Shown: piece by piece, positions 28,559-47,469 of the stretch
Layout: every line of letters starts with the position of its first letter
How positions within the stretch are numbered: the stretch's first letter is position 1
Assembly (NCBI GenBank): GCA_944332535.1
Contig: CALVKE010000038.1
Location: 1-47,469 of the forward strand
DNA from: an uncultured Bacilli bacterium
GTDB taxonomy: Bacteria; Bacillota_I; Bacilli_A; RF39; UBA660
Length of the DNA: 47,469 nt
Reading direction: 5' to 3'
Program-made: the position numbers and the translations under genes
Notes under the pieces: model-generated
Databases searched by the model: none
Told to the model about the DNA's origin: nothing
What the model saw: the letters and a program-made list of their open reading frames with translations, nothing else

Positions 28559-28598
28559 ACTATCACTCTTTCTATGGTTTATTTTATCATAATCACAC

Positions 28599-28627
28599 AA
28601 AAAAACCAATAGATTCTCATCTATTGA
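28599..28627 (-). terminator. Rho-independent terminator after the ABC permease fragment / capsule operon
   Basis: Minus strand CAATAGAT-GAGA-ATCTATTG-GTTTTTTT. Confidence 0.75.
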
Positions 28628-28638
28628 TTTCAGAAACA

Positions 28639-28827
28639 CTAATGTTTCAAAAACATTTTCTCCAGTTTATTTACTAAGAAATACATTAAGTAGGAAATGA
28701 TGGCTAGTATGACAACAGAGGTAATTACGAGATTGATATTAAATACTTGAGAACCATACATGATAAGATATCCTAACCCTTCTTTTGAAACAAGTAACTC
28801 TCCCATAATAACTCCAGTAAAAGACAT
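28639..28827 (-). pseudogene. 3' fragment (62 codons) of a NitT/TauT/SsuC-type ABC transporter permease
   Basis: GVIMGELLVSKEGLGYLI...QVFN is the C-terminal signature of these permeases; no RBS and only 14 nt between it and the LCP stop. Confidence 0.75.
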
Positions 28828-28841
28828 ATGGAGAGAACTTT

Positions 28842-30350
28842 TTAAGAACTTGTTTTGGCCATTAGTGCATCAATTGCATTTCTTGCCTTTGTTAGACTTT
28901 CTTGATCTTGGGTCATAACATATGGTTTAGAGTTTGGTGCTGTGTGTGTTGGCAGATAAGCATCTCCTCCATTTACCCACTGGGTAGTAATCGTCCATGG
29001 TGACATATCATCAATTTGCATTCTAGCATAATTGGTAATCACATTGGATGGCAAGTTCGTAATATATAATCCCGTTAAAGCATCTAGTAACTCGTCGTAT
29101 TTTTGTAGTAGTGTAATATCAGAAGTAACTTTTGTTACAATAGCTTTTAATACGGCTTGTTGATTTTGAACTCGCATCCGGTCTCCTATTTTAAAAGCAT
29201 ATCTTTCTCTTGCAAAAGCTAAGGCTTCTGAACCATTGAAAGAATTATATCCTTTTTGTACCTTTACTCGATTTCCTTCGGAATCTACATGGTAGGTCGT
29301 AAAAGTATATTCACTATAGACATCTACTCCACCGATTAGATCGATGATCTCAATTAGGGAATCAAAATTAATTTTAACATAATAGTTAATATCAATATGC
29401 ATTAAATCTTCTACCGTTGCAACAGAAGTTTCAATTCCGTATAATCCGGCATGCGTCAATTTGTCTTTTAATCCTGTTTGACCATGTACTTGAACATAAT
29501 AATCACGAGGAATTGAGGTTAATAAAATTTCTTTCGTATTTGGATTAATCGTTGCAATCATGTTAACATCACTTCGTGATACATCTGTTAAAGTATGATT
29601 TCTAGTATCCATTCCAGAGATGAAAATATTGATTGGTTCCGTTTCGATATCATAGACTTCTTTCGAAATATCCGTCTGCGCTTCTTCTAAATCGAATGTA
29701 AAGATCACTCTTACTAAATCATCAAAACTATTGTCTTGAAAGTCTTGAAAATCTTCATCTAAATATTCATCGTAGATCAAATCCATTCGCCCCTTATCCA
29801 TTACCATAGAAGAGACTTCATTTTCTAAAAAGGCATCCACTAATTCATACAAATCGTCATACCCAGTAAAAGTTGCATTTACTTGTTTTGTTAGTTTTTC
29901 TTGTACTTGTTCATTTTTCGGATCGGCATTAAAATAAGCAATGGTTTGATTTTCTAAATCTTTAATATTTTCGTATTCACTATTTTTCAAGACATAAATA
30001 GAATAAGCCCCTACTTTGACAGTTTCGTTATCGAACCCTTCTTTTAAAAACTCTAAAATACGGTCTGTAAACAAAATGCAAAATAGCATAATAGCAAATA
30101 AAACGACAGATAATAAATACCCCGGTATCTTAAAATATAATTTTTTGCGAGTCATCAATACTCCAAATAAAATAATAATAAGAGTAAAAAGTATAATTGC
30201 TAGTAGAAAATAACGGGCGGGCAATACTTGGAGATGATAAATTTTCCACCATAACACGCCAGAAGTTGCAAATAATATAAGTAATGCGATAATACCAACT
30301 AATAAAGCTAGACGAACTTTTTTATGGTCCTTCTTTTTTTCTTTCTCCAT
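28842..30350 (-). CDS. LCP (LytR-CpsA-Psr) family polymer-attachment protein, CpsA/Wzg-like
   Basis: Three N-terminal TMs; ISGMD, RSDVNM, SIPRDYYV, DKLTHAG, ALAFARERY, GDRMRVQNQ. Confidence 0.92.
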   Translation of the reverse strand: MEKEKKKDHKKVRLALLVGIIALLILFATSGVLWWKIYHLQVLPARYFLLAIILFTLIIILFGVLMTRKKLYFKIPGYLLSVVLFAIMLFCILFTDRILEFLKEGFDNETVKVGAYSIYVLKNSEYENIKDLENQTIAYFNADPKNEQVQEKLTKQVNATFTGYDDLYELVDAFLENEVSSMVMDKGRMDLIYDEYLDEDFQDFQDNSFDDLVRVIFTFDLEEAQTDISKEVYDIETEPINIFISGMDTRNHTLTDVSRSDVNMIATINPNTKEILLTSIPRDYYVQVHGQTGLKDKLTHAGLYGIETSVATVEDLMHIDINYYVKINFDSLIEIIDLIGGVDVYSEYTFTTYHVDSEGNRVKVQKGYNSFNGSEALAFARERYAFKIGDRMRVQNQQAVLKAIVTKVTSDITLLQKYDELLDALTGLYITNLPSNVITNYARMQIDDMSPWTITTQWVNGGDAYLPTHTAPNSKPYVMTQDQESLTKARNAIDALMAKTSS

Positions 30351-30366
30351 TTTTTCTCCTCTTTTC

Positions 30367-31533
30367 TTAATCTCTTACGAACAAATCACGAGTATAAACT
30401 TTTTCAGAAACATTTCGAACAAAATGATCAATACGGTTCGCTATGATTATCTCGCTTTTTTCTTGAAAGTCTTCTAAATCCTTTATTACCGGACAATCAG
30501 CAAAACTATTTTCTTTTAAAGTTGGTTCATAAATAATAACTGAGATATTTTTTTGTTTTAACAATTCAATAATACTTTGAATCGCACTCATTCTAAAATT
30601 ATCAGAATCTGCTTTCATAGTTAATCGATATATTCCAACTGTTTTAGGATTTCTTTTGGCAATTTGATCGGCAATGTGATGTTTTCTTGTATCATTGGAT
30701 TTTACAATTGCTTCAATAATATTTTCTGGAACATTCTCATAGTTTGCCAATAATTGTTTGGTATCTTTTGGAAGACAATATCCTCCATAACCAAAAGATG
30801 GATTATTATAGTAATCTCCGATTCTTGGATCTAAACATACTCCGTCAATAATATCTTTCGTATTTAGCCCCTTTAATTCTGCATATGTATCTAATTCATT
30901 AAAATATGCAACACGAAGCGCTAAATAAGTATTGGCAAATAATTTTACTGCTTCTGCCTCAGTAGAGTCCATAAATTTCACGGCTACATCCGGTTTCAAG
31001 CAGGAATCTTTTAGTAAGTTAGCAAATTCTTTTGCTTTCTCGCTTCTTTCTCCAACAATAATGCGAGAAGGATATAGGTTGTCATATAAAGCTTTTCCTT
31101 CTCTTAAAAATTCTGGTGAAAATATAATATTATCAATATGATACTTTTCTTTCATTGCTTTAATAAAACCAACTGGAACAGTACTTTTGACAACCATTGT
31201 TGTATCAATTCCCATACTAATTACCTTTTGAATGATATCTTCTACAGAAGATGTATCAAAGTAATTCTTTTGATCATCATAATTAGTTGGTGTACTAATA
31301 ATAATAAATTTAGCTCCTTCAAAAGCTTCTTTATAATCTAAAGTAGCTTTTAGATTCAAATCTTTTGTTTGAAGAAATTCTTCAATTTTTTCATCTTGAA
31401 TCGGGCTAATTCTATTATTAATCTTTTCTACTTTTTCTGCAATTACGTCCAAAGCCATTACTTCGTTTTTTTGACTTAGTAATACTGCTAAGGATAATCC
31501 TACATAACCAGTACCTGCTACTGCAATTTTCAC
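30367..31533 (-). CDS. ugd: UDP-glucose 6-dehydrogenase
   Basis: [42 protein letters not shown]. Confidence 0.95.
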
Positions 31534-33080
31534 GATTTCACCTTCCTTTTTTTCAATTTATTCCAAATTTTTCTTAAAATCTGTTTTTTATAAAACTCGA
31601 AATCTGCTGTACGATAATAAATTATAAAATATAGGATATTAGAAATGATTACAATAATTATTCCATAAATAAGAAACTCTAAAATTGGATTTGTAATTGT
31701 GATGAAAGAAAGAGCGACATAGTTAACACCAAACACTAAAAGAGCAACTATTGCATGTTTAAAATACAACCACGCATATTCTTTCTTAGTTCCGTGTAAT
31801 AATTTTTCATATACATATTTTGGATAGTTAAAAATATAAACTACCATTGTACTAATAATCGTTCCCATCAAAACACCTGCAAGTCCAAAGTAATGCGTTA
31901 AAATTAAAGAAGCGACTAAATTTACGATAGACTCAATAACTGGGATGTAACGGTCTTCATAAAACACTCCTCCTGCCTCTTTAAAAGCAGACGGAGTTTT
32001 TCTCATTCCACGTATATATACGTGCAACGTCATAACAACTAATACTAGTTGTGGTAATAAATTATCTGCTCCAATCCAGACTTTAATAAATGGAGTAATT
32101 AAAAAATAAAATAAAGTAGCAGAAAGGCCAAAAATCCAAGAATTAAATAAAAGCATTGATTTATAAACACTTCGTGATTTTTCATAATTTTTTTCAACTA
32201 GTAAATTTCCGACAGACGAAGTAAGAGAGTTAAAAATATTAGAAAAAATAGTGTTGATATAATTTGATATCATATAGTAATTGTAATACAAACCAACATA
32301 AACAATTCCTAGGCCCTTTGTCATAGAAATAATAATGCTATCTGTTCCTGTTACTACAAATCCACCAATTTTATGAAATAGAAGTCCGCTTACTTTTTGA
32401 TGAATATCCTTCTTTATTTTTCTTGGTAATTCCTTTGCATGAGATAAATCTGCTAAATAACTATAATGTTTATTTACATAAAGGTGAATAGCAACGTTTT
32501 CTAAAATAGTGAATATAATCTTTAATATTAGATATAATATAAAATTTTGAGTCAGTAATAAAACAATTATTTGAAATAAATTGGTAAGGAAGAGAAAAAT
32601 TACGCTAATTATATTAATTATATAATTTTTTTGATCCGCATACAAAATACTTCTCTTATATGTAAGAAGATAAGAAACTACAGATTGTAATAAAAATAAT
32701 AAAAATAAGACATATAAATTTTCTTTAATGGTCGTGGGACCAACGATCATTGAAACGAATGGAAGTACGAGTAATCCCAGTATCAGTACAATTCCTGCTA
32801 CGCTTTGATAAACTACTTTATAATATTTTAATAATGATTGAATAGATTCTTGATCATTATCTTTTAAAGGTTTATAAAAATTATATACAATTGCCGATCC
32901 AAAACCTAACTCTGCAATCGACAACATACTTAAAATATTAGTGAAAAGGCTTTTAATCCCGTTATATTCATTTCCCAAGGTCCTAATAAATACTGCTTGT
33001 GCTATCACAGCAATGATGATTGAGATGAAACTATATACGAGTGATAAAATCCCATTTCGTATAGAATTTTTTGTCCTCAT
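31530..33080 (-). CDS. wzx: Polysaccharide flippase
   Basis: [18 protein letters not shown], 12-14 TM segments, 516 aa. Confidence 0.85.
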
Positions 33081-34268
33081 TTATCTTACCCTCGATTCTA
33101 ATACTTTTATCCATTGCTCGCCAATTTTTTCCACAGAAAATTTTTCGGCCTGTTCTATGGCCTGCTTTGACATTTCAGAAATTTTAACCGGATCATTTGC
33201 TAATGACAGCATAGCATCTGCATAATCTTGCAAATGATTTTGTTCGATTATATATCCACAATTTTTCTCTTCAAAAATTTCACGAACAGATGGTAAATCA
33301 AAACTAATAACTGGCAATCCATATTCCATTGCCTCCGTTACTACCATTCCCCAGCCTTCCCATAATGAACTCATCAAATAAATAGTGGCATCTAAATATT
33401 GAGACTCCATATCAGAAGTTTTTCCGGGTAAAAAAACACGATTTTCTAATCCTAACTCCTTTACCAATTCCTCACATTTTCTTTTTTCAGGTCCGTCTCC
33501 ATAAATATACAAGTTCCAATCTTTGTTCTTTTTAGAAAAAATGTAGAATGCTCTTATTAACTTATCAAACGATTTTACAAAACTAAATCTTCCTGCTGCC
33601 AAAAACTTTTTAGAAGTTAATTTACTGTGTTTATCTGTTTTGAAGGCATTCGGATTTGCAATGTTTATAACATCATAATTAAAATGTTTTTTAATTTTTT
33701 CTTTATCATCTTTAGTTTGTACGATATAAACATCTAAATTTTGAAACAGATCATTTAAAATTATTTCTTGATGATAAAATCTTCTACCTGGCATCTCAAA
33801 ATAAGCTTCATAAGTACTGTGTTGCCATCCAATCGTTTTTGTATGACTTATTTTTGGCTTTAATATTGACAATATTGTAGAATAAGTACTAGCAATTCCG
33901 ATTATAGCATCAAATTTTTGTTTTTTTATCACTTCAATTATTTCAGGCATATCCCATCGATTACAATAACTATTTTTAATTATTTTTTTACTTTTTTGAA
34001 ACCAACCATACTTTCTATTGCATTGGCCTAAGATTTTCCAAAATTTTCGAATAAGGCGATGAAAAAAATTATTGTATTTTTCTAAAAATACAACTTTTGC
34101 TTTTTCGTCGAGCTGATACAAAGAATAGTCTATATTTTTATTAGAAGACGTCAGTAAAAATGTTACTTGATAACCTTGTTGAATTAAGTAATTAGCAAGA
34201 ACAGTAACTACTCGTTGTTCTCCTCCTAATGTAAACGGAGTATCCATAAAAAAACATATCTTTTTCAA
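33081..34268 (-). CDS. GT4 glycosyltransferase
   Basis: GGEQRV, AGRFSFVK, EGWGMVVTEAMEYG; probable TTG start 34268 (ORF track 34277). Confidence 0.88.
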   Translation of the reverse strand: MKKICFFMDTPFTLGGEQRVVTVLANYLIQQGYQVTFLLTSSNKNIDYSLYQLDEKAKVVFLEKYNNFFHRLIRKFWKILGQCNRKYGWFQKSKKIIKNSYCNRWDMPEIIEVIKKQKFDAIIGIASTYSTILSILKPKISHTKTIGWQHSTYEAYFEMPGRRFYHQEIILNDLFQNLDVYIVQTKDDKEKIKKHFNYDVINIANPNAFKTDKHSKLTSKKFLAAGRFSFVKSFDKLIRAFYIFSKKNKDWNLYIYGDGPEKRKCEELVKELGLENRVFLPGKTSDMESQYLDATIYLMSSLWEGWGMVVTEAMEYGLPVISFDLPSVREIFEEKNCGYIIEQNHLQDYADAMLSLANDPVKISEMSKQAIEQAEKFSVEKIGEQWIKVLESRVR

Positions 34269-34281
34269 AAACAACACCCCC

Positions 34282-35409
34282 TCATGTTTTTTTTGAGCGG
34301 AAAATTAATACAGAGAATACCAATAAAAATGCATTAAATGAAACATTAAATATGATATTTTCCATTAAGCAATAAATACTCAATAAAAATAGGATTAATA
34401 TTATAACATAATCTTTGTTTTTATAAAAGTATTTAATAACTTTTTTATAAGCCAACGCAAATACTAGAAATAAGCAAAGACCATATTTTAACAAAATATA
34501 AAAGTAACCATTATCCAGATATACCGGTGATATTCCTTCCAATGCAGCTTGTTTTTGACCAATAAGACGAATATTGTGTCCAAATAAGTTAATTCCATAT
34601 TGATCCATTAAATTACTGATCCAATAAATTCTTCCGCTTAATAGTTCATTTATCTTTAAACCAATTTCATTATCGGAATTATATAAATAAACACAGAAAA
34701 AAGTAAGTAACGTTAATATTATAAATGAGTGAGTAATAAAGGTTTTTATGAAACGCTGCTCAAATAATTTTTCTAATGTGTGAGTTCGAAATAGTACAAA
34801 TAGCGATAGCAGTATCAAAATAATCATAGAAGTCCTACTATCACAGAAATAATTTATTAAAATTATTGCCGGTAAAATAACGAATAACATTTTTTTAGAA
34901 AATTTATCCTTATGAATATATATATACTCAAAATACGTAAGCAATATTAGATATCCAAACGTATTTGGATGAGAAAATCCCATTGCACTTCGAATACTTC
35001 CATCTTCGCGGTAAACAATATTTTCTTCTGTAAGGCCTAAGAAGTTGCAAATTAAAACAATAGCAATCATACCCACTGTAATTTTGAAAGTATATCGCAT
35101 GAATTTATTAAAATCTATATTTTCACTAGCATAAATTAATAACAGTAATCGTAAGATTTGTCGATCCCCGGCAAAATAACTACAGATTACGGCTAAACAA
35201 AATACAGCAACCATTGCCACAAAAGTTTTTCTAGGATAACAATTGCGCTGTAAAAAAAAGTTTACAATTAAAATGACTAAAGATATATCATTTAAAATGT
35301 CTAAATAATTTGACACTATTGTAACTTTTGAAAAAAGAGCGCTAAACAACATTAACAAATAAGCAAAATAAAATAAAAATATATTTATTTTTGTTTTGTT
35401 TAATTTCAT
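34282..35409 (-). CDS. wzy: Putative polysaccharide polymerase
   Basis: About 10 TMs; RSAMGFSHPN, SRTS, LSGR, LDNGY, LMEN. Confidence 0.75.
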   Translation of the reverse strand: MKLNKTKINIFLFYFAYLLMLFSALFSKVTIVSNYLDILNDISLVILIVNFFLQRNCYPRKTFVAMVAVFCLAVICSYFAGDRQILRLLLLIYASENIDFNKFMRYTFKITVGMIAIVLICNFLGLTEENIVYREDGSIRSAMGFSHPNTFGYLILLTYFEYIYIHKDKFSKKMLFVILPAIILINYFCDSRTSMIILILLSLFVLFRTHTLEKLFEQRFIKTFITHSFIILTLLTFFCVYLYNSDNEIGLKINELLSGRIYWISNLMDQYGINLFGHNIRLIGQKQAALEGISPVYLDNGYFYILLKYGLCLFLVFALAYKKVIKYFYKNKDYVIILILFLLSIYCLMENIIFNVSFNAFLLVFSVLIFRSKKT

Positions 35410-35419
35410 GATTATCCCC

Positions 35420-36268
35420 CTATTCTATTGAAATCAGGCTACCTAAATAATTCAGATATTCCTGTCGCACATTTTGACAAAGTCCTGCATTAGGGGAAAA
35501 GGTTAATTCTCCAAAATAAATCTTTCCGTCAATATTGTATAAATCCACTCGAACAAAAGGAAAATCATTTGATAATTGAGATGCAATTTCAATCATCTGA
35601 CTTAAATTTTTAGGTTTTTCAATAGGATTGGGATTTTGATATTTCTTATAAGAATAATTAAGATGATTCCAGTTTAAATCAAAATAATCACGATAATTTC
35701 CATGTTCTCGATCAGAGCAAACTAAAATGCATTCCACCTTTCCAGAATAGCAAAAAAACTTATAATCGTTCAAGGAAGCAGAAGAGCTATCCAAATATTC
35801 TTCACATAAAATTTGAGGAGTTATTAACGCATAATGATACTCTAACGAAGCTTTAGCATAATTTTTTTTCAAACTTTTTTCTATTTTTCTTCGTACCTTT
35901 TCTATATCTAAGTTCTTCTTATCTTTACAAACGATCACATCTCCAGAACCATGATTGCACTTTAAAACAAACTGTGTTCCTAATTCTTCAAAATCGATCT
36001 TTGTCGCATCATCATAAGTCTTTATTGTCTTGATAATATTTAGATGTGGAATCTTCTTTTTAGCTAAAATTTCTTTTACTGCTATTTTGTCAGACAGCTG
36101 TGCTTCCTTTTCGCCATACTTATGAATAATGAGATAATGAATTTTTTCGTTGAGATCTTGCGGAGCGGTTAAATTTAACTTTTTATGAAACACACGAAAA
36201 TAAATGATTTTATGAGCTATTTTTTTTGGTAGACGATATAATATCTCATGATACAATGTTTTTAACAT
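35420..36268 (-). CDS. TupA-like ATP-grasp amidoligase
   Basis: LNEKI, FVLKCNHGSG, EEYL, DYKFFC, FPFVRVDLY, FGELTFSP. Confidence 0.88.
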   Translation of the reverse strand: MLKTLYHEILYRLPKKIAHKIIYFRVFHKKLNLTAPQDLNEKIHYLIIHKYGEKEAQLSDKIAVKEILAKKKIPHLNIIKTIKTYDDATKIDFEELGTQFVLKCNHGSGDVIVCKDKKNLDIEKVRRKIEKSLKKNYAKASLEYHYALITPQILCEEYLDSSSASLNDYKFFCYSGKVECILVCSDREHGNYRDYFDLNWNHLNYSYKKYQNPNPIEKPKNLSQMIEIASQLSNDFPFVRVDLYNIDGKIYFGELTFSPNAGLCQNVRQEYLNYLGSLISIE

Positions 36269-36280
36269 GCTAACACCTTC

Positions 36281-37300
36281 TTAATTAAATCTTTTTTTTC
36301 TTTTCAATTGATATGCGCTATTCATGGACCAATAGAAGAAGGAAATTAAATGAAAGCGAAGAAAAAATAATCGAACTTTATTAGGAAGAGACAAAAGACG
36401 ATAAGGGCATTTCTGAATTGCCTTTCGAAATACTGGTTCTTTGATCTTTTTTTTAATTTCTTCTTTTATTTGTTTTGAAGTTAGGCCAGCCTGCTGTGGC
36501 AAGTATTTTAATTTGATAATATCATTCAACAAATAAATTGTCCTCATTTGACAATAAGGATCCAATTCTAATTGTTTGGATGTTTGAATGAATTTTGTAG
36601 TTTCTTCTATAATAGCGTAAGCAACTTCATCCGCTTTTTCAGAGTATTTATTGGTTACTGATTCATTAAACATTCGATAATGATAAAGAGGCTGGTCAAT
36701 ATAAGAACATATTTCAGCGTGGTGAAATACATTTAAATTAAAAATAGAATCTTGCATTCTTTTTAAGTTGGGAACAAATGTTAGATGATGCTTTAATAAA
36801 AAACTTTTTTTATAAAGTTTGCTCCATGGTACACCAAAAGTAGAAAAGCAAGCCTTTAAAAGCGTTAATTTGTCATTTTTAAATACTTTATCTTTTTCAA
36901 AGAAACTTTTTTTCTCTTCTTTTTCTGCTGTATTTTGATAGTATCCACACATACTTACGTCGCTATGATAAGTATTGGCGTTTTTCCATAGTAGTTCCAC
37001 TAACTTATCGTCACACCAGTCGTCTCCATCTACAAATAGTAAATACTCTCCGTTTGCCTTTTCAATTCCGTTATTTCTAGCGACAGATACCCCAGCATTT
37101 TCTTGGTAAATATAGCGAATCCGCGAATCTTTTTTTGCGGCTTTTTCACAAATTGCTGCACTATTATCCGGACTGCCATCTACAATTAATAAAATTTCAA
37201 TATTAGAGTAAGTCTGTCGAATTAAACTTTCAATACACTCCTCTAAATACTTCTCTACTTTGTAGATAGGAACAATAATAGATATTAAGGGGGTCCTCAT
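36281..37300 (-). CDS. GT2 glycosyltransferase
   Basis: ISIIVPIYKVEKY, DGSPD, GVSVARN, FVDGDD. Confidence 0.9.
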   Translation of the reverse strand: MRTPLISIIVPIYKVEKYLEECIESLIRQTYSNIEILLIVDGSPDNSAAICEKAAKKDSRIRYIYQENAGVSVARNNGIEKANGEYLLFVDGDDWCDDKLVELLWKNANTYHSDVSMCGYYQNTAEKEEKKSFFEKDKVFKNDKLTLLKACFSTFGVPWSKLYKKSFLLKHHLTFVPNLKRMQDSIFNLNVFHHAEICSYIDQPLYHYRMFNESVTNKYSEKADEVAYAIIEETTKFIQTSKQLELDPYCQMRTIYLLNDIIKLKYLPQQAGLTSKQIKEEIKKKIKEPVFRKAIQKCPYRLLSLPNKVRLFFLRFHLISFFYWSMNSAYQLKRKKRFN

Positions 37301-38466: not shown

Positions 38467-39197
38467 TATTTTCCTCTTACTATTAACCTAATAAATTTTA
38501 AATTGGTTTTAAAGTATCTACGGAAAAGCCGTTTTGGTTCTTGCAACAAACGATATAGCCACTCCAAACTACATTTTTGCATCCATTTTGGTGCTCGTTT
38601 AATTTTTTCGGCAAAATAATCAAATCCTGCACCGACTCCAATCATGAGTCCTTTTACTTTTCCTTTATGCTGATACATCCACTTTTCTTGTTTCGGTGCT
38701 CCAAGTCCGACCCAAACAAAATCTGGTTTTGTTTTGTTGATCATTTGAATGATTTTTTTATCTTCCTCTTCGCTTAACGCACGAAATGGTGGCGAATACA
38801 TTCCTACAATATTCAAGTTAGGATATTTTGCTAATAATTTTTCTTTTAATAATTCTAACGTCTCCTCGGTACTTCCGTAAAAGTAATGCGTAAATCCGCA
38901 CTCTTCTGAAATTTCGAAAATCTCTTTCATTAAATCAGGTCCAGTTACTCTTTCTGCTTCTTTAAACCCTCTTTTTTTCGCTACGACACTTAATGGTTTT
39001 CCATCGGGAAGACGTAAATAAGCCGTATTTTGTACTTTACAATATTCTGGATCTTCGTAACTCATGACGGTCGTATGCACATTTGATATACAAATGTATT
39101 CTCCTTTTAACACGGAAATCTTATTTTTAAGAAGCGACACTACTTCTTCCATGTTTGTTACAGCAATTTCTACTCCTAAAATATTACATGTCGTCAT
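38466..39197 (-). CDS. WecB/TagA/CpsF family (GT26) glycosyltransferase
   Basis: SNVH, LPDG, RVTGPDL, VGLGAPKQE, GVGAGFD, LEWLYRLLQEPKRL. Confidence 0.92.
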   Translation of the reverse strand: MTTCNILGVEIAVTNMEEVVSLLKNKISVLKGEYICISNVHTTVMSYEDPEYCKVQNTAYLRLPDGKPLSVVAKKRGFKEAERVTGPDLMKEIFEISEECGFTHYFYGSTEETLELLKEKLLAKYPNLNIVGMYSPPFRALSEEEDKKIIQMINKTKPDFVWVGLGAPKQEKWMYQHKGKVKGLMIGVGAGFDYFAEKIKRAPKWMQKCSLEWLYRLLQEPKRLFRRYFKTNLKFIRLIVRGK

Positions 39198-39224
39198 ATT
39201 CTCTACATCCTTTTCTCTTTTATT

Positions 39225-39289
39225 AAAAAATAAGAAATCTCTTCTTTTTACGTTCCGCTTTGTTGTGGTAAAAAGGATCTTTCTTATTT
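39225..39289 (-). terminator. Long intra-operon hairpin (possible attenuator or processing site)
   Basis: AAATAAGAAA/TTTCTTATTT (10 bp) enclosing CTTTTTAC/GTAAAAAG (8 bp), ending in T6 on the minus strand. Confidence 0.45.
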
Positions 39290-39300
39290 ATTTGCTATCA

Positions 39301-39975
39301 TTATTTTGCACCATTTTTTCTTAATACGGAACTAACTGTTTTCCAAGCAATCTTAATATCTCCTCTAAGTCCCCAGTTATTGGCATATTCTACATCCATT
39401 TTCACTCGTTTTTTAAAAGAGACATTGCTTCTACCACTCACTTGCCAAGGGCCAGTAATTCCTGGCTTTACTTTGATAATTTCAGAATATCCATTTCCCA
39501 TATCCTTCTTTTCTCTTGGCAGATAAGGACGCGGTCCTACAAAAGACATATTTCCTCTTAACACATTAAAAAACTGGGGGAATTCATCTAATGAAGTCTT
39601 TCGAAGAAATTTCCCAATTTTTGTAATCCGGGGATCATTTTTAAGCTTTTTATTCTTCAAATATTCTTTTCGAATCTTTTCGTCTTCTCGCATGAGTCGT
39701 TCTAGTTCAGCCTCTGCATTAGGTATCATACTACGAAATTTATAAATTGCAATCCTTCTTCCATCTTTTCCAATCCGATATTGTTTAAAAAAGATGGGAG
39801 AAAAGTCATGGTTTTTTACGTAACAAATTTTGATAATGCAGTAAAGAGGAAGCAATGTAAGTGTTCCTATCAGTCCAACGATGATATCTGCCATACGTTT
39901 TATAACCAATTTCACTCCATAACGAAAAGCATCTGTTTGTACATACAACTTTTGTAGTATTCCTGCTTCATTCAT
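39301..39975 (-). CDS. Priming phosphoglycosyltransferase (bacterial sugar transferase domain)
   Basis: KRMAD, YKFRSM, DPRIT, RKTSLDEFPQ, GPRP, KPGITG. Confidence 0.92.
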   Translation of the reverse strand: MNEAGILQKLYVQTDAFRYGVKLVIKRMADIIVGLIGTLTLLPLYCIIKICYVKNHDFSPIFFKQYRIGKDGRRIAIYKFRSMIPNAEAELERLMREDEKIRKEYLKNKKLKNDPRITKIGKFLRKTSLDEFPQFFNVLRGNMSFVGPRPYLPREKKDMGNGYSEIIKVKPGITGPWQVSGRSNVSFKKRVKMDVEYANNWGLRGDIKIAWKTVSSVLRKNGAK

Positions 39976-39986
39976 AATGAATCATC

Positions 39987-40769
39987 CTATCTATCTTTTT
40001 TTACAAACAACTTAAATTTTGTTCTTGGTACTCTTATTTTATAAGCGTGTATAACCGTATTTTGAATTACTTTTTCAATGTTTTTATCCACTAATTCCTC
40101 AGCAATATATTTGCTTCCGGTCAGTTTTTCTATTCTTTCTGCCGTCTCTTGAATTCGGTGATAACTCGTCTGTCCTTTGTGATGAACATCGCTTCCGATG
40201 AAGTGAATCATGTGACGTTTTAACATCTCTTCTAAGCGTTCTTGTACATTTTTTCCATACTTGCAGTAAAGGCTTCCAATGTTTCCTTGCATGAGAGCCC
40301 CTTCTTGAATCATTTGTTGAAATTCATCTAGATCTTTATAGTATTCATAACGTTCCGGATGAGCAATGATCGGTACGATTCCTGCTGTACGAAGGCGAAA
40401 AATCAATTCGTGTAACATCGCAAATTTAGAATGAAAAGGTAACTCTAATAGAAGATATCTGCTTTCATTAAGTGTTAAAATCTGATCCGTTTTTAAATAC
40501 TTCATCAAATCGCCATCTAATGTTACTTCGTTTCCCAAGTATAGATGAACCGGAATGTTTTGTCTTTCTACTTCTTGTGTTAATTGCTTAAAGATTCTTT
40601 TTTTCTCTTGGTTGTCGCAAGTAAAGTCCTGTATACTCCGATAATGAGGAGTTAAAATAATGTCGGTATAACCATTTTGTACGGCTTCCTTGATAATTTG
40701 AATGCTCTCTTCTAACGATTCACTTCCATCGTCGATTCCAAACAATATATGATTATGAATATCTTTCAT
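39987..40769 (-). CDS. cpsB: CpsB/CapC PHP-family tyrosine phosphatase
   Basis: DIHNHIL, DDGS, TPH, AHPERY, GSDVH. Confidence 0.9.
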   Translation of the reverse strand: MKDIHNHILFGIDDGSESLEESIQIIKEAVQNGYTDIILTPHYRSIQDFTCDNQEKKRIFKQLTQEVERQNIPVHLYLGNEVTLDGDLMKYLKTDQILTLNESRYLLLELPFHSKFAMLHELIFRLRTAGIVPIIAHPERYEYYKDLDEFQQMIQEGALMQGNIGSLYCKYGKNVQERLEEMLKRHMIHFIGSDVHHKGQTSYHRIQETAERIEKLTGSKYIAEELVDKNIEKVIQNTVIHAYKIRVPRTKFKLFVKKDR

Positions 40770-41452
40770 TATTCGCTATAGTAACCACTACTGTAATAGT
40801 ATGGTTCATCTTTCACGTCTACTTGGTTTAAGATAACTCCGGCTATTTTCGCTCCGACATTATCCAAAGACTTTTTCGACTTTTCTAATAATTCCATAGG
40901 AGTTTGCTTGTATTTTGCCACGATAATAGAAGTATCGACATAAGAAGATACAACAAGAGCATCATTTAATCCTGTAACAGGAGGACAGTCAATTAAAATA
41001 ATATCAAAATGGTTTCTTAATAACTTCAATAAATTAGCACATCTCTCACTAGCAAGAAGTTCCGATGGGTTTGGTGGGAACGTTCCGGCTGGAAGAAGAT
41101 ATAAATTTTTTATTTTGGTCTTTTTTACATAGTTCTTTGCTGTTGCACGATAATCTTCGTCGATTAATAAGTTAGACATACCAAGCGTTTTATTACTTGA
41201 AATTCCAAATATTTTGTGTTGACGTCCTTTTCGAAGATCACAATCGATTAATAATACTCTTTCATTAAACTGCGCAAAGGCACAAGCTAGATTAGCTGTT
41301 ACAAAACTTTTCCCTTCTCCTGGAACAGAAGAAGTAACCATAATCGTCTTAACCTCTTTGTTTATGGCTGAAAATTTTAAATTCGTACGAACTGTTTTGA
41401 TCGCTTCACTAAAAGAAGAAGTCGGTTTATCAATGACAATTAGTTCATTCAT
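40769..41452 (-). CDS. cpsD: CpsD/CapB BY tyrosine kinase
   Basis: GEGKS, IDCDLR, PPNPSELL, IDCPP, C-terminal tyrosine cluster YYYSSGYY. Confidence 0.92.
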   Translation of the reverse strand: MNELIVIDKPTSSFSEAIKTVRTNLKFSAINKEVKTIMVTSSVPGEGKSFVTANLACAFAQFNERVLLIDCDLRKGRQHKIFGISSNKTLGMSNLLIDEDYRATAKNYVKKTKIKNLYLLPAGTFPPNPSELLASERCANLLKLLRNHFDIILIDCPPVTGLNDALVVSSYVDTSIIVAKYKQTPMELLEKSKKSLDNVGAKIAGVILNQVDVKDEPYYYSSGYYSE

Positions 41453-42135
41453 TATTTCACCCCTTTTCCACTGACTGGAATATTTCCAATAACTGGAATT
41501 CCTAGACGATTTTCTACTTCTTCACTAGACTTAATAGAGGTATCAAAATAATAAATAGCAAATACGACTCCTCCAGCTACTACAAGTCCTGCTGCAAAAA
41601 AAAGTAGAAAAGACTTCCCTAATTGAATATTATACGGAGTACTTTGTACTTCTGCTTCATCGATGATCGTTACGTTTTCAAGACTGTAGATTTCCATTAC
41701 TTCCTGCTTAAATACATCCGCTATAGTATCCGCAATTTGTGCCGCTCTCTTTGGATCTTCATCGCTTACACTGATTTGAATAATCTCTGTATCGCTTTTG
41801 TTGGATACTGTTACTTTTTTCGATAACTCTTTGGTTGACTCATTCAATTTCAATTGTGAAATAACTTGGTTCAACACTCTTCTACTTTTAATGATTTCAC
41901 TATAAGTAGCAACCAGTTTTTGGTTCAGTACAATATCATTTTGTGTAAGTGAAGAGGAAGAATCCGCATCTTCTTTTTTCACTAAGATTAATGTAGTGTC
42001 CCCCTTATATAAAGGCGTTTTTAAAACCATTGTATAAACGATTCCAACGGCAAAAATAAAGATTGTAATTAACATCATTAGTGGAATTTTTTTGACAAAA
42101 AAATTAAATAAATCTTTTAAATTTATCTCTTCCAT
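41452..42135 (-). CDS. cpsC: CpsC/CapA (Wzz-family) chain-length regulator
   Basis: MEEINLKDLF, TYSEIIKS, two TMs, FDTSIKSSEEVE...PVIGNIP; real start ATG 42135 (ORF track 42279). Confidence 0.9.
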   Translation of the reverse strand: MEEINLKDLFNFFVKKIPLMMLITIFIFAVGIVYTMVLKTPLYKGDTTLILVKKEDADSSSSLTQNDIVLNQKLVATYSEIIKSRRVLNQVISQLKLNESTKELSKKVTVSNKSDTEIIQISVSDEDPKRAAQIADTIADVFKQEVMEIYSLENVTIIDEAEVQSTPYNIQLGKSFLLFFAAGLVVAGGVVFAIYYFDTSIKSSEEVENRLGIPVIGNIPVSGKGVK

Positions 42136-42184
42136 ACTTCCATCCCTTCTTATTACTAATCTCCCCTGTTCATTTACTGATAAT

Positions 42185-42212
42185 ATTATATCATAGATTT
42201 CTAAAATGTTAA
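42185..42212 (-). promoter_or_regulatory. Promoter of the capsule/EPS operon
   Basis: Minus strand TTAACA, 16 nt, TATAAT with TGn extension. Confidence 0.55.
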
Positions 42213-42456
42213 TCCCTAATTTCACTTTTTGTGTATTTCTCGGTTTTTTTTCAAAAAATGATCCCTTTATTAGAGACAAAAAATTATACCTTCTGTTATT
42301 ATTTTCCTCTTTAGTAGAATCTAAAAAGAAATAGATCCCTATCCATTAATTATTCCATTCTTACTAATTTATGAATTTATTTTGAAATATCCCCACAGAA
42401 ATTAGTCATAAGTTTACAGCGAAAAGATTAAAATTACGTTTATAAATATGAGAAGG

Positions 42457-42465
42457 TGATATAAT
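42457..42465 (+). promoter_or_regulatory. Extended -10 for the divergent O-acetylation cassette
   Basis: TGATATAAT about 50 nt upstream of ATG 42515. Confidence 0.45.
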
Positions 42466-42514
42466 TAATAAAGATATATTTAATAGATTATTTTAGTAAG
42501 ATTCGGTGGTAGGA

Positions 42515-43285
42515 ATGAAAAAAATAGTACTATTAGTTGGCAAGTTATTTCTTTGTGTTTTGATAGCCTTCTTTATTAGTTGGCTTATCATAAAACATGA
42601 TTTTTTGAAATTTTCTCAAACAAGTAAAAAGTATGAAGATACGGAACAATTTTTTATTAACAATGAAAATAGAGATATCGCAAAAATAAAAGAAGACATA
42701 GATAAAGTAAATAATCCAATACTCGAGCCTCCTCTTCTACCAGATTATGATGTGTCTCCTAAGGATTTCTTTCAGCAAAATAGAATCTTGATGATTGGAG
42801 ACTCTATGGTGGAAGGAATGGACGCTTATGAAGTTTTATATTCGTCTAATACGATATGGCAACGAGGAAAAAGAATTGATGACATGTCAGATCAGTTAGA
42901 AAAAGCTGTTACTTATAACCCTAGTGCTATTATTCTTTCCTATGGATTAAACGATGTTCAATTATGGAATGGACGAGTAGATAGCTTTATTAACGCTTAT
43001 AATAATAGTTTAGAGAATATCCGAAAAGCTCTTCCGAATACCACAATCTATGTATGTTCCATATTTCCTGTCAGTCAAGAGGCAATTGACAGAGATTCTT
43101 CTTTTCAATATATCAATTTATTCAATGATAGATTGCAACAATTATGTAATGATAAAGGAATTTCGTTTATAGACAGCAGATATTTATTATCAAATGTATC
43201 TAATCCCTATGGGCCTGATGGCATACATCCGAAAGCTTTTTTCTACAAAGAATGGGCGAATGATATTATGAGTAAAATGAGGTAA
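42515..43285 (+). CDS. Membrane-anchored SGNH/GDSL family protein
   Basis: N-terminal TM; IGDS, YGLND, DGIHP blocks (ORF track start 42506). Confidence 0.85.
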   Translation: MKKIVLLVGKLFLCVLIAFFISWLIIKHDFLKFSQTSKKYEDTEQFFINNENRDIAKIKEDIDKVNNPILEPPLLPDYDVSPKDFFQQNRILMIGDSMVEGMDAYEVLYSSNTIWQRGKRIDDMSDQLEKAVTYNPSAIILSYGLNDVQLWNGRVDSFINAYNNSLENIRKALPNTTIYVCSIFPVSQEAIDRDSSFQYINLFNDRLQQLCNDKGISFIDSRYLLSNVSNPYGPDGIHPKAFFYKEWANDIMSKMR

Positions 43286-43289
43286 TATT

Positions 43290-43751
43290 ATGAGAGTAAA
43301 ACAAATAATTTTTATTGCACTTTTTATTATTCTTTTATTATTAATACCATTTTTCATAAAGGATAAAAAAGTGGAATGGGACGAGATTAAAGAAGTAATT
43401 AAACCATACATTGATCAACAAGTAGTTCAAAATGTTGATTCCAGTACGATATATAATCATTATAAAATAAATACTAATTTGCTAGATGGCTATATTAGTT
43501 ATGGACCTATTTCTTATATGGATGTTCAAGAAATCACAATCTTTAAAGAAAAAAAGATAGAGCAAAGAGATGTTATCGTAAAAAAAATAAAAGACTACAT
43601 TGCTAAAAAAATAACTACTTTTGAAGGATATGCTCCTTTACAGGTAGACTTATTAAAAAATGCTATTGTAGAAGTTAAGGGAGATTATATATTTTGTATA
43701 ATACTAGAGGATAATACTTCGTTATGGCATGATATTATGAAATTATTTTAG
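43290..43751 (+). CDS. DUF4358-like membrane-anchored protein
   Basis: N-terminal TM; VQEITIFK, FEGYAP, LKNAIVEVKGDY; context next to MBOAT. Confidence 0.7.
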   Translation: MRVKQIIFIALFIILLLLIPFFIKDKKVEWDEIKEVIKPYIDQQVVQNVDSSTIYNHYKINTNLLDGYISYGPISYMDVQEITIFKEKKIEQRDVIVKKIKDYIAKKITTFEGYAPLQVDLLKNAIVEVKGDYIFCIILEDNTSLWHDIMKLF

Positions 43752-43765
43752 AAAGAAGGATCCCA

Positions 43766-45127
43766 ATGTCTTTTAATAGTATTATATTTTGCTTTCTATT
43801 TTTACCAATTGCAATTATTATTTATTTCTTTATTCCCAAAAAATTAAAAAATATATATTTACTAATCATTAGTATATTATTTTATTCTTATAGTAGTATT
43901 TTTCATACCATTATCTTATTATTAATCACCATTTATAATTTTGTTGCAGTTCGAAAAATGGATGAGTTACAAGAAAAAAGAAGAAAATATAAATTGATTG
44001 AGATATTAATAATCAATATTTTTACATTATGTTATTTTAAATATTATTATATATTGCTAGATAATTTATTTCATAATCTTTCCTTTAAAGAAATTATTTT
44101 ACCTCTTGGTATGTCATTTTATATATTTACTATATTGTCTTATGTAATTGATGTATATAAAGGAAAAGTACGTAGTGAATCAAATTTGACCTCTTTTGGT
44201 TTGTATGTTTTATTCTTTCCCAAATTAATAATGGGGCCCATTGTCAGATATCAAGATTTTAACGAGCAAATCGATCATCATGATTTTAATAATTCTTTAT
44301 TTCATTACGGTTTTAAAAGATTTATTATTGGTCTTGCTATGAAAGTGGTGCTAGCAGATACTTTTTCTAGAATTATTTCTTTGTATCAAGTTGATTCCAT
44401 GCTTGGTAGTATTGTCATCATTGTCTTGTATTCTATGCAATTATATTATGACTTTGCAGGTTATACAAATATGGCATTAGGACTTAGTAATATTTTCGAG
44501 TTTGATTTTCGAGAAAACTTTCATTACCCTTATATGTCAAAAAGTGTGGGAGAATTCTTTCGAAGATGGCATATTTCATTAGGCGAATGGTTTCGTGATT
44601 ATGTTTATATTCCTTTGGGAGGTAGTCGAACAACAAAGCCTCGTCTAGTAATTAATCTGTTAATTGTTTGGCTTCTTACAGGAATGTGGCATGGGGCTAG
44701 TTATAATTTTATTCTTTGGGGGATTTTTTTAGGAGTCATCATCGTTATAGAAAAATTAGTATTATCTAAAATTAAAATTCCTACATTTGTTGGCGTCCTA
44801 TTTACTTTTATATGTATATCAATTAGTTGGATATTCTTCTTCAATTCTGATTTTGATCATATCACACTATTGTTTAAAAACTTAGTTAATATCCATCATT
44901 TTGCTGATGATCAAATCTATTCGATATTAAGTAATTATCTTGTTTATCTAATTGTTGGTTTTATCGCTTTGACTCCTGTTATCAAAAATATTGGTATTTC
45001 AATTCAGGAAAAACACCCTTATCTATATAATTGTTTTAGTTGTATTTATCTATTATTTTTAATCCTTTTATCAACATCCTATATGATTAGTTATTCCTAT
45101 CAACCATTTTTATATTTTAACTTTTAA
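43766..45127 (+). CDS. MBOAT family O-acyltransferase (AlgI/PatA-like)
   Basis: LPLGMSFYIF, FFPKLIMGPIVRY, YYDFAGY, RRWHISLG, YIPLGG, GMWHG, FLYFNF. Confidence 0.93.
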   Translation: MSFNSIIFCFLFLPIAIIIYFFIPKKLKNIYLLIISILFYSYSSIFHTIILLLITIYNFVAVRKMDELQEKRRKYKLIEILIINIFTLCYFKYYYILLDNLFHNLSFKEIILPLGMSFYIFTILSYVIDVYKGKVRSESNLTSFGLYVLFFPKLIMGPIVRYQDFNEQIDHHDFNNSLFHYGFKRFIIGLAMKVVLADTFSRIISLYQVDSMLGSIVIIVLYSMQLYYDFAGYTNMALGLSNIFEFDFRENFHYPYMSKSVGEFFRRWHISLGEWFRDYVYIPLGGSRTTKPRLVINLLIVWLLTGMWHGASYNFILWGIFLGVIIVIEKLVLSKIKIPTFVGVLFTFICISISWIFFFNSDFDHITLLFKNLVNIHHFADDQIYSILSNYLVYLIVGFIALTPVIKNIGISIQEKHPYLYNCFSCIYLLFLILLSTSYMISYSYQPFLYFNF

Positions 45128-45136
45128 GGAGGAAAC

Positions 45137-46246
45137 ATGAAAAAACATAATTATTTTATCGGATGGATCACATTAATATTTTTATTAACCATATTTTTTA
45201 TTAATTTCTTTTCCCCTACTTTAACTTTTTCGAATCAAGAAAATAGAATTCTTGCGAGTAAACCAAAATTAGATTTCGATAGCCTATTGGACGGTAGTTA
45301 TTTTTCTTCTTATAGCAAATATTTAGAAGATCAATTTTGGAATAGAACTATGTGGAAAAGTTTTAAAACGAGCTTTGAGAAAAAAATGGGGTTAAAGAAA
45401 ATTGATCATTTATATTTTGGAAAAGATGGCAGATTAATAGAAGAAGCAATTGTTCCAAGTGATGACTTTTTAACACGAAGAATTAATAATTTAACAAAGT
45501 TTCTTGATTATTACAAAGATCTTAATACAGAATTTGTATTAGTTCCAAATAAAATTGGAATATATAATGAAGAAATTGGAGTCGAAAACAAGCAAAAAGA
45601 AATTTATCATAATTTTATCAAGAATTTTGATCCGGAATTATTTAAAGTAAATTGTTTTGATATATTGAACTCTCATAAAGAAGAAAATATATTTTATAAT
45701 ACGGATCATCATTATACCTCTTTAGCTGCACGTTATATAAGTGAAAGTTTATACGATAAAAAAGAAGTAACCTATGACAAATATATTGTAAACGATCATT
45801 TTATGGGAACGAGTGCGAATAAGATTGCTTACTATGATAAAGCAGATATTTTTGAATTATATGTACCAAAAGTGGACGTATCTTATTATTTAACTTATAG
45901 TAATGAAGAGAAGGAATATACTTCGCTATATGATAAGAGTAAACAATATAGTTATAATCCTTATGAGATTTTTTTCGGTGGTAATAAAAGTATTATTGAC
46001 ATTCGGACAAATTCAAAAAAGGAAGAAAAGCTACTTATACTAAAGGATTCCTATGCGAATAGTTTCATTCCATTTATTTTATCGGATTATAGAGAAATAA
46101 TTGTTGTGGATCCTAGATATTATTATGATGATATAAATTCTTTAATTGAGGATAAGCAAATCACTGATATCTTGTTCTTTTACAGTATGAATACATTTTT
46201 TGAAGATACCTCTTTGGACGATATGATTGAAAATACCGAAAAATAG
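45137..46246 (+). CDS. DHHW-family (AlgJ/AlgX-like) O-acetylation protein
   Basis: ENRILA, YLEDQF, FYNTDHHYT, KDSYAN, VDPRY. Confidence 0.82.
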   Translation: MKKHNYFIGWITLIFLLTIFFINFFSPTLTFSNQENRILASKPKLDFDSLLDGSYFSSYSKYLEDQFWNRTMWKSFKTSFEKKMGLKKIDHLYFGKDGRLIEEAIVPSDDFLTRRINNLTKFLDYYKDLNTEFVLVPNKIGIYNEEIGVENKQKEIYHNFIKNFDPELFKVNCFDILNSHKEENIFYNTDHHYTSLAARYISESLYDKKEVTYDKYIVNDHFMGTSANKIAYYDKADIFELYVPKVDVSYYLTYSNEEKEYTSLYDKSKQYSYNPYEIFFGGNKSIIDIRTNSKKEEKLLILKDSYANSFIPFILSDYREIIVVDPRYYYDDINSLIEDKQITDILFFYSMNTFFEDTSLDDMIENTEK

Positions 46247-46276
46247 GACTATTAAAGAATTGGGAATAAATGATTT

Positions 46277-46304
46277 GGGAGAGATTTTTTTATCTCTCTT
46301 TTTT
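46277..46304 (+). terminator. Rho-independent terminator after the O-acetylation cassette
   Basis: GGGAGAGAT-TTTTTT-ATCTCTC-TTTTTT. Confidence 0.75.
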
Positions 46305-46373
46305 GTTTTCTTTTCCATGTTATCTTACTCATTTTATAAAATGTAAAAAATATAATGGAATGAGGGGATAGGA

Positions 46374-46493
46374 ATGAGAGTATTACGAGTGGAAAATTAT
46401 GATAAGAATGGAAATAGAATCGAACCTAAGAGGGTTACTTTACATTTTTCTTTATTATATACCCTATTAAAGAAATACATGACGGAATCATAA
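46374..46493 (+). CDS. Small hypothetical protein (39 aa) upstream of the recombinase
   Basis: MRVLRVENYDKNGNRIEPKRVTLHFSLLYTLLKKYMTES; GAGGGG RBS; TATAAT at 46351-46356; below the ORF-track cutoff. Confidence 0.5.
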   Translation: MRVLRVENYDKNGNRIEPKRVTLHFSLLYTLLKKYMTES

Positions 46494-46570
46494 GCTAGAC
46501 TATTAGCATGTTATTTTTTAGGAAAAGGGGGGAATAAGTTATTAGTCATTTCAAAGCCGGAGTCAAAAAC

Positions 46571-47469
46571 ATGAAAGCTCTTTACGTTCGAGTTTCCACA
46601 GATACTCAAGTAGAAGGTTATTCGATCGATGCGCAAATAGAGTTTTTAGTGAGTTTTTTAAAGAGTCAAGGATGGAAGGATTATGAAGTATATATGGATC
46701 CTGGATTTAGTGGTAAGAATTTAGAAAGACCTGCGATTCAAAAACTAATTAAAGACTGTGAATCTGGGGATATTGATACGGTATTGGTCTTTAAATTAGA
46801 TAGATTATCCCGTAGTCAAAAAGATACTCTCTTTTTAATAGAAGAAGTATTTAATAAAAACAATGTAGGTTTTATTTCTATTAGAGAAAGATTTGATACT
46901 ACTTCTCCTTTTGGTAAAGCCATGATAGGAATACTTTCTGTCTTTGCTCAATTAGAAAGAGAAACAATTTTAGAAAGAACCAGAATTGGTCTTAAAAAAC
47001 GTGCTGAGGATGGGTATTGGCGAGGGGGTGGTAAAACTCCTTTTGCTTATGATTATGATAAAGAAACAGGAACTTTAGTTGTGAATCCAGAAAGAAAGGC
47101 TATTTTTGATTTAATGAAGACTTTGCGAATACAAGGATATAGTTATCATGAGTTATCGAAAGTAACTGGATATGATGAAGCATGGATTCAAGGAATATTA
47201 AATGCCAAAACTAATTTAGGAAAAATCCCTTACAAAGGAGAACTTTATGATGGAAGACATGAAGCGATTATTAGTGAAGAAGAATATGAACAATTACAAA
47301 TAATAGAAAAATCTCGAAGTAGGAATCAACATGCTAGTCATTACTTATTATCAGGAAAGATATACTGCGCGAAATGTGGTGCCAAATATCGTTATCAAAA
47401 ATGGGGACAAAGAATTATTTGTTACTGCTATTCACAACAGAAAAGCAAACCTAAATTAGTAAAAGATCC
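46571..47469 (+). CDS. Large serine recombinase/integrase, truncated by the right edge
   Basis: Manual translation: MKALYVRVST (catalytic Ser), DPGFSG...RPA, KLDRLSRS, FAQLERE, and in-frame LLSGKIYCAKCG zinc ribbon; GGAG RBS. Confidence 0.93.
   Translation, partial: MKALYVRVSTDTQVEGYSIDAQIEFLVSFLKSQGWKDYEVYMDPGFSGKNLERPAIQKLIKDCESGDIDTVLVFKLDRLSRSQKDTLFLIEEVFNKNNVGFISIRERFDTTSPFGKAMIGILSVFAQLERETILERTRIGLKKRAEDGYWRGGGKTPFAYDYDKETGTLVVNPERKAIFDLMKTLRIQGYSYHELSKVTGYDEAWIQGILNAKTNLGKIPYKGELYDGRHEAIISEEEYEQLQIIEKSRSRNQHASHYLLSGKIYCAKCGAKYRYQKWGQRIICYCYSQQKSKPKLVKD

Follow-up and report, generated by a model that had tools for sequence, protein, structure and literature searches.

Why should a capsule gene cluster sit between the tail of an ABC permease gene and a large serine recombinase (LSR)? 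The question is posed by 47,469 nucleotides (nt) of DNA from an uncultured Bacilli bacterium of the order RF39 (assembly GCA_944332535.1, contig CALVKE010000038.1), referred to here as the window: it is the whole of contig C38 of the organism's own genome, G000 (96 contigs, 1.12 Mb, 90% complete; G, C and L numbers denote our genomes, contigs and loci), and it ends inside the recombinase gene. A first-pass annotation of the window had proposed a capsule cassette that could be excised or swapped. Our analysis indicates that the permease fragment and the recombinase almost certainly mark opposite ends of a single element that has inserted into the permease gene. It further suggests that this gene is probably ytlD, and that the element – on balance, and with appreciable doubt – resembles the skin element in being excised during sporulation.

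On the minus strand, positions 28639..28815 hold the 3′ part of the permease gene: 58 open codons running from Gly207 to the stop (28639-28641), SsuC/TauC-like, and 80% identical to the intact 263-amino-acid (aa) permease of a genome of the same genus, G002. Beyond the stop lies a hairpin with a U-tract on the same strand (28596..28631; 13-bp stem, z -2.99, with 2 of 200 shuffles equally good). We infer that this is the permease terminator, in which case it would likely stop the capsule transcript too; a simple terminator scan gave 0 matches at the hairpin. The first-pass description of an open, undecayed fragment that keeps its stop and terminator therefore holds.

The break coincides with the dinucleotide GG at 28814..28815 (minus strand), the first two bases of the conserved Gly codon and the predicted crossover core: GG is present at 83 of 83 5′ junctions and at 43 of 44 3′ junctions (duplicates counted). 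Next to it, at 28816..28839 (minus strand), is the putative element-side (attP-derived) arm of the left attachment (att) site. Between this arm and the recombinase-side arm of the eight closest relatives, 17-19 of 24 bases are complementary. Positions 28821-28837 match the recombinase-side arm of close relatives exactly; for this 17-bp arm the window contains one exact match and one match with three mismatches (at 5051), where 0.14 chance matches are expected. The first-pass annotation had identified no att site directly; this arm supplies one. The junction had been placed at about 28828: there is indeed an att junction there, but the crossover GG is 13 nt away, and the ATG at 28827, 14 nt past the stop of the LCP gene and formerly counted as permease sequence, belongs to the att arm. 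The possibility that the recombinase is part of a separate element, with its att site in 46247-46570 near the recombinase start, finds no support, as no match to the arm with up to three mismatches occurs in that interval.

Strains were compared using assembled contigs from 4 of 24 listed sequencing runs (four studies) over 27470-43700. A contig from an independent run (X4 record 17, 27470-28893) spans the same junction and differs at 22 of 1424 flank bases: the junction is therefore not an assembly artefact. The only listed difference within the permease fragment in another strain is silent.

The other end of the element is seen in relatives. Loci with related recombinases were ranked and the best 80 of 190 genome loci fetched; the close relatives come largely from uncultured Bacilli, Candidatus Onthousia and Onthocola (Bacilli incertae sedis) among them, and the named source datasets for the junction region are mostly chicken gut metagenomes. 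In 62 of the 80 loci the 5′ half of the permease (codons 1-207) ends 25-47 nt past the recombinase stop, on the opposite strand; in seven the 5′ part is farther off or otherwise oriented, and 11 offer no usable 5′ junction. All eight loci with a recombinase 94-96% identical to that of the window have the 5′ half at 42 nt. The expectation that the missing 5′ half lies to the right of the window thus appears correct, judging from these relatives. Complementarity between arms averages 15.3 of 24 bases for attP and 9.1 of 24 for attB. Where one locus contains both junctions (27 distinct elements), joining them computationally restores the frame in every case and gives 257-289 codons; an early stop (before codon 200) occurs in 0 of 83 permease 5′ halves. 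Three of the 27 complete elements are flipped. At L062, L103 and L106 (also L101 and L102) the element runs opposite to the permease, and the core dinucleotide is reversed relative to the recombinase.

From the complementarity of the arms and the 42-nt spacing in relatives, the right att site is predicted about 42 nt after the recombinase stop, near position 47960. The integrated element would then span 28815 to just past the contig end, some 19.1 kb, with the right junction of this copy taken from relatives. In the own genome that junction is unassembled because C38 ends inside the recombinase: neither the 5′ permease half nor the recombinase end is in any of the contigs, and all 25 full-length permease queries against the 96 contigs matched only the C38 fragment. 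The uninterrupted arrangement can be read from the congener G002, in which the order tsaE-tsaB-rimI-tsaD-HTH-SBP-ATPase-permease (SBP, substrate-binding protein) is followed by three other genes and then the same ligase-GT2-rmlA block, with no capsule genes between; the first-pass annotation had proposed seeking such a relative, with an intact permease by the ligase gene. Contig C34 of the own genome carries tsaE through the ATPase gene in the G002 order and then ends. An estimate of 1.3 kb for the gap between C34 and C38 was dropped when the ATPase gene, ytlC, was found to be interrupted too; C39 was rejected as a link, since the match of its start to relatives' DNA is due to a shared cargo gene.

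The recombinase gene (46571..47469, plus strand) encodes Resolvase and zinc-ribbon domains and is cut by the contig end after 299 of approximately 448 codons; the product is 94-96% identical to those of eight relatives with 448-codon genes. Upstream, at 46374..46493 (plus strand), is a 39-aa open reading frame (ORF) that the first-pass annotation overlooked and that is conserved in this position and aligns among relatives; we predict that it encodes a recombination directionality factor (RDF). Of 75 sequences whose flank is long enough, 68, the window among them, have an ORF of 35-49 aa ahead of the recombinase, and the 39-aa ORF matches no NCBIfam family. The complex of recombinase and putative RDF was modeled for the pair at L031: the score was 0.77 against 0.55 for the best control, with contact agreement between runs of at least 85% and a partner pLDDT (predicted local distance difference test) of at least 77. 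The mark used for such models is reached by 116 of 157 solved pairs and 2 of 215 mismatched pairs, counts that hold only roughly because the alignments were user-supplied. Modeled contacts, which include strand pairing, involve recombinase residues 303-331 and 399-446; we read these as the base of the coiled coil and the end of the zinc domain, and verified RDFs have been placed at the same recombinase interface (PMC12286644). As a prediction, the model supports binding of the small protein to the recombinase.

Several further observations concern the recombinase. Many relatives have no ATG at its start and may begin at ATT or ATA behind a strong ribosome-binding site; the window has ATG. A hairpin in the block between the small ORF and the recombinase was discarded, being non-significant in four of four folds. 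In viral contigs the best recombinases are at most 45% identical, the nearest phage recombinases to this family being 42-45% identical, and one of 79 viral-contig loci holds a permease piece, at a different site. A sister recombinase, taken up below, adjoins the 3′ part of sigG at L109:11396-11476; at L110:6099-6160 the same sister-recombinase end is followed by a palindromic attP-like site, possibly an excised or unintegrated form.

What, then, is the interrupted gene? The best Bacillaceae match to the permease lies in an SBP-ATPase-permease-ytkD-ytzI-luxS neighborhood in Anoxybacillus, with all three transporter genes 41-44% identical. In Bacillus subtilis the gene order is ytlA-ytlC-ytlD-ytkD; on these grounds the split permease is probably ytlD. 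Neither NCBIfam, Pfam nor the ESM Atlas yielded a family particular to the ytl genes. If the gene is ytlD, a link to sporulation follows from work on the orthologues: ytlA, ytlC and ytlD appear in a list of the sigma-K regulon (PMC3416734), and ytlC of Clostridioides difficile, which is served by a sigma-K promoter, drops to 0.08 when sigK is mutated (PMC3789822). A corresponding signal is present here. Upstream of ytlA (the SBP gene), a -10-like box occurs in all 40 distinct regions, and the sigma-K -35 motif, AC (PMC3789822), stands at the right spacing in 24 of 40, compared with a mean of 2.6 and a maximum of 7 in 500 shuffles; -35 motifs of sigma-E (8 of 40) and sigma-A (1 of 40) are at chance level. 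The target thus looks like a mother-cell sigma-K operon, and for this reason the analogy with skin and SPbeta drawn by the first-pass annotation fits better than expected.

So far, sporulation in this gut lineage has been a prediction based on gene content (PMC10868615). Sporulation genes identified in the host are sigK, a sigE-like gene, spoIVA and spoIIID; Spo0A is found in five of five relatives and in both congeners. Of 401 family genomes queried for the permease, 308 gave a match. The permease is absent in 47 of 63 spoIVA-negative genomes as against 46 of 338 spoIVA-positive genomes; these numbers carry no significance test because the genomes are related and hence not independent. Eighty of the 308 positive genomes, chosen for low scores or several matches, were queried again. 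The permease is split in at least 44 of the 308: 33 genomes have both halves, eight only the 5′ half and two only the 3′ half away from ambiguous contig ends, the own genome making up the total. Four more genomes have an intact permease plus a spare 3′ piece. At L093 and L150 (G328) the neighbor of the intact permease is a decayed remnant of the element plus such a piece, a picture that would fit recovery of the gene by the host.

Insertion is not confined to one site or one gene. Among the fetched loci, ytlC is broken at codons ~140 and ~194, and ytlA at ~75, ~150 and ~195. The own copy of ytlC (G000:C34:6486-7023, L133) is interrupted at codon 141, just past the ABC signature motif, whereupon the contig ends; the sequence after the break is arm-like and complementary to the arms that precede the ytlC 3′ halves of relatives. 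Judged by these arms, a second element is present in the same operon of the own genome, in ytlC. Beyond the operon, 40 of 338 genomes have two or three matches for spoIVA, and the gene is cut at codons 121-125 in all five genomes inspected. In one of these (G108:C2:72632-76745, L132) the inserted element is 2.6 kb long and comprises Fic, a 39-aa ORF and a 514-aa recombinase; in G011, G012, G029 and G157 (L123-L131), which represent four genera, identical element ends stand in spoIVA at contig edges.

Related arrangements were noted in passing. At L064, L074, L081, L091 and L094, insertions lie between ytlA and ytlC with neither gene split. In Anoxybacillus amylolyticus (NZ_CP015439.1, 181998-222572; L176) ytlA is split by a complete-looking prophage of ~39.5 kb that carries a serine recombinase; although labeled a plasmid, the record has chromosomal genes in this stretch. 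In the own genome an Amidase_3 gene is cut by a ~3-kb recombinase element (G000:C82:4431-9020), and the 3′ part of a Mn-catalase gene (cotJC-like) lies beside a prophage recombinase (G000:C79:37676-39604).

The cargo of the present copy comprises two parts, and here the first-pass reading – capsule and O-acetylation genes, with a large serine recombinase beyond them – agrees with the Pfam and NCBIfam assignments. At 28842..42279 (minus strand) is a Wzy-type capsule/exopolysaccharide cluster encoding Wzd, Wze, Wzh, a priming transferase, WecG, GT4, GT2, a TupA-like protein, a probable Wzy, a further GT4, a Wzx-like protein, Ugd and LCP; the Wzy (ORF 34282-35409) has no family match and is probable by position. 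At 42506..46246 (plus strand; GC 26.8%) follow genes for a GDSL esterase, DUF4358, MBOAT and DHHW, a predicted polysaccharide acylation module. The four genes of this module occur in G324 and G096, 58-74% identical, with no capsule genes in the stretches fetched, and capsule clusters of similar type lie elsewhere in family genomes (for example G111 and G023): since the two occur separately elsewhere, this cargo is a mosaic. DNA of the capsule cluster found single genes at 64-78% identity and no close copy in 400 family genomes (one or two candidates scored per genome). Neither Wzd nor a close recombinase was found in the two congeners (89% and 94% complete). The other fetched ytlD elements contain no capsule genes, a single LCP match (L064) falling outside that element.

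Across the family, content varies greatly. Distinct complete elements measure 2.5-14.9 kb, and those of just 2.5-2.9 kb still keep the recombinase; a member in G115 (C5:14584-48895; L144, L145) extends the range to 33 kb and encodes a relaxase, a coupling protein, a VirB4-like ATPase and a tetracycline ribosomal protection protein of the TetM/W/O/S type. Conjugation genes (relaxase, coupling protein, type IV secretion) are present in the relatives G115 and G292; none is among the ORFs of this copy, which from 28842 to 47469 likewise include no gene for virions, packaging or lysis. Other cargo, from a scan of 70 selected proteins, includes SMODS nucleotidyltransferase, AAA ATPases, Schlafen-type helicases, ABC exporters and metabolic genes. 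On the explanation favored below, the capsule is one of many possible cargoes rather than a regulated switch.

To the left of the element the window belongs to the host. The nearest gene (27281..28561, start approximate; minus strand) encodes an O-antigen-ligase-like membrane protein (Pfam PF13425) whose orthologue in both congeners is 51-52% identical. A second polysaccharide locus, the host's own, occupies 91-27315 with rmlA, an ABC exporter, WsaF-like and other glycosyltransferases and a GT11 fusion, together with insertion sequence elements at 2390-3637 and 9541-10778 and a 1455-aa LRR/CAP/Ig/ChW surface protein.

If the element is of the skin kind, its life might proceed as follows. The recombinase integrated it at the Gly207 codon, as the junction anatomy of relatives and the left arm in the window show, with the right junction extrapolated. 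In growing cells the element would stay, leaving the capsule and acylation genes expressible, while the late-sporulation operon would presumably be silent anyway. On the structure prediction, the 39-aa protein would bind the recombinase where the zinc domain meets the coiled coil and turn it to excision. The two junctions would then recombine and restore the reading frame, as computed for all 27 complete relatives, and sigma-K would transcribe the operon in the mother cell, in line with the promoter motif and the literature on orthologues. The spore would retain element and capsule. In the own genome the second insertion, in ytlC, would have to leave as well.

A number of points weigh against excision during sporulation. 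Rejoining in frame is no proof of excision because any precise integration gives it. A motif for the junction of the excised circle, which covers part of the family, was found in 0 of 177 loci and in 0 viral contigs; one match in a metagenome contig was dismissed as chance, being in unrelated DNA. The contigs of the four runs show no joint or loose end at 28815 among the loose ends listed, contigs being prone to drop rare forms; the circle or empty site that the first-pass annotation had suggested seeking was thus absent from material that could hardly show it. The score of the complex exceeds the control margin by just 0.02. Upstream of the putative RDF gene, 33 of 37 regions contain a -10-like box, which would suit sigma-A as well, and a -35 box is not evident. 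This copy lacks a block of ~49 nt before the recombinase (window 46520-46575) that its closest relatives keep, so that its expression may differ; several relatives with intact genes likewise lack it. Targets are not all mother-cell genes: the sister recombinase, which is 57% identical and accompanied by a homologous small ORF, is located in the forespore gene sigG. The identity of ytlD comes by way of the Anoxybacillus neighborhood rather than from direct comparison with the B. subtilis YtlD sequence, and Spo0A was not found in this 90%-complete assembly. Lastly, the ytl transporter has no known function (PMC11466899) and may be dispensable.

That dispensability is central to a second explanation, which we regard as unlikely but serious: the permease gene may have been chosen since its loss costs little, with excision rare or linked to transfer (by a helper phage or integrative and conjugative element, or after DNA damage) instead of sporulation, and carriers living without the transporter. 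Spread has been recent and horizontal, as in four comparisons the recombinase DNA of different hosts is 92-93% identical although their permease ends share only 65-71% identity, from which it follows that the module moves between genera; one member, the 33-kb element with its tetracycline-resistance gene, is conjugative. The 46 spoIVA-positive genomes in which no permease was found, the contig searches that gave no excision product, and the sister enzyme in sigG point the same way. Other observations weigh against this explanation. The split halves are undecayed (no early stop in any of the 83), small elements without transfer genes retain the recombinase, and where the att core has decayed (L093, L150) an intact permease copy is also present. 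Moreover, a core sporulation gene is split in like manner: spoIVA is essential for sporulation.

Two other readings are less probable still. The capsule might be switched off, and the transporter on, by excision in vegetative cells, or strains might exchange capsule types at this site, as the swappable cassette of the first-pass annotation implied; the whole capsule cluster does lie between att sites, the same site bears other cargo in other genera, and the congeners have yielded neither Wzd nor a close recombinase. We consider this improbable. No capsule gene is found in the other fetched ytlD elements, each of the 30 bins between flank and capsule has depth in the four runs (from four studies, though few strains), a strain differing at 22 of 1424 flank bases spans the same junction, and, given the sigma-K-type promoter of the restored operon, there would be little to gain from rejoining it during growth. 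It is more improbable again that the family excises but this copy is locked in, the deletion of ~49 nt upstream of the recombinase and the insertion in ytlC (codon 141, at the end of C34) having fixed the island in place and left the operon dead. The final third of the recombinase is unassembled, but all that can be read – recombinase (299 codons), small ORF, att arm, 3′ fragment and ytlA (87% identical to that of a congener) – is open, the sole difference listed for the fragment in another strain is silent, and the missing block is missing also from relatives with intact genes.

Excision during sporulation therefore remains the explanation we favor. Taken further, the data prompt a wider conjecture, to which we give somewhat less than even credence: that these gut Bacilli rebuild the mother-cell chromosome at many sites in sporulation. 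Independent, genus-crossing serine-recombinase elements would occupy at least six sites within a single sigma-K operon of three genes, along with spoIVA and further spore genes, and the ytl transporter of the present organism would need two excisions (ytlC and ytlD). Because the need to excise would keep the recombination modules alive, such sites could act as stable docks for vegetative cargo – a capsule locus, defense genes, antibiotic resistance – that is inherited by the spore and discarded by the mother cell.

If excision occurs as proposed, sporulation-linked gene rearrangement, known from a few cultured Bacillus and Clostridium cases, would extend to a large uncultured gut lineage and be common there, with the probable ytlACD operon and spoIVA as new targets. 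The intact and repeatedly targeted sigma-K genes would be indirect evidence that these bacteria sporulate. The short predicted RDFs would form a new family, with matched recombinase and att sites, that could serve as an integrase tool. There is also a caution for annotation, as such split genes are scored as pseudogenes or absences. It is the frequency of the elements, the predicted new RDF family and the multiply split operon that are of note; the capsule is incidental, ordinary cargo.

How does the element compare with known systems? In the titles and abstract openings searched (subscription papers and supplements lay outside), no element in ytlA, ytlC, ytlD, spoIVA or this lineage is described. 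The LSR islands of Durrant et al. (PMC10083194) share with the present family the pattern of one recombinase cluster, one target gene and many hosts; in the main text the targets given are ComM and a prolyl isomerase, and neither 'ABC' nor 'transporter' occurs, while the supplementary target tables could list this gene. SPbeta in spsM (SprA and SprB), vfbin in spoVFB and vrin in spoVR also split a sigma-K gene (PMC4191935). These are phages or phage remnants, whereas the only autonomous member found in the present family is conjugative; in the SPbeta type, the RDF is under a mother-cell promoter and the spore keeps the element (PMC4191935). The gin element in gerE of Bacillus cereus (GirC and GirX) is like ours in its non-phage cargo, variable content and late mother-cell target, but has three recombinases and a 9-bp core (PMC5595907) where we see one recombinase and a 2-bp core. 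In skin, the target is a sigma factor gene, sigK (SpoIVCA and Skr in B. subtilis; CD1231 and CD1234 in C. difficile), and excision has been shown; here the target is an ABC permease gene, excision is predicted from sequence, and the element carries a capsule cluster in place of phage genes and an RDF candidate outside the NCBIfam families. The layout of B. subtilis skin, with skr directly upstream of spoIVCA (PMC6957869), is the same as that found here, and by analogy the element would work like skin, gin and SPbeta.

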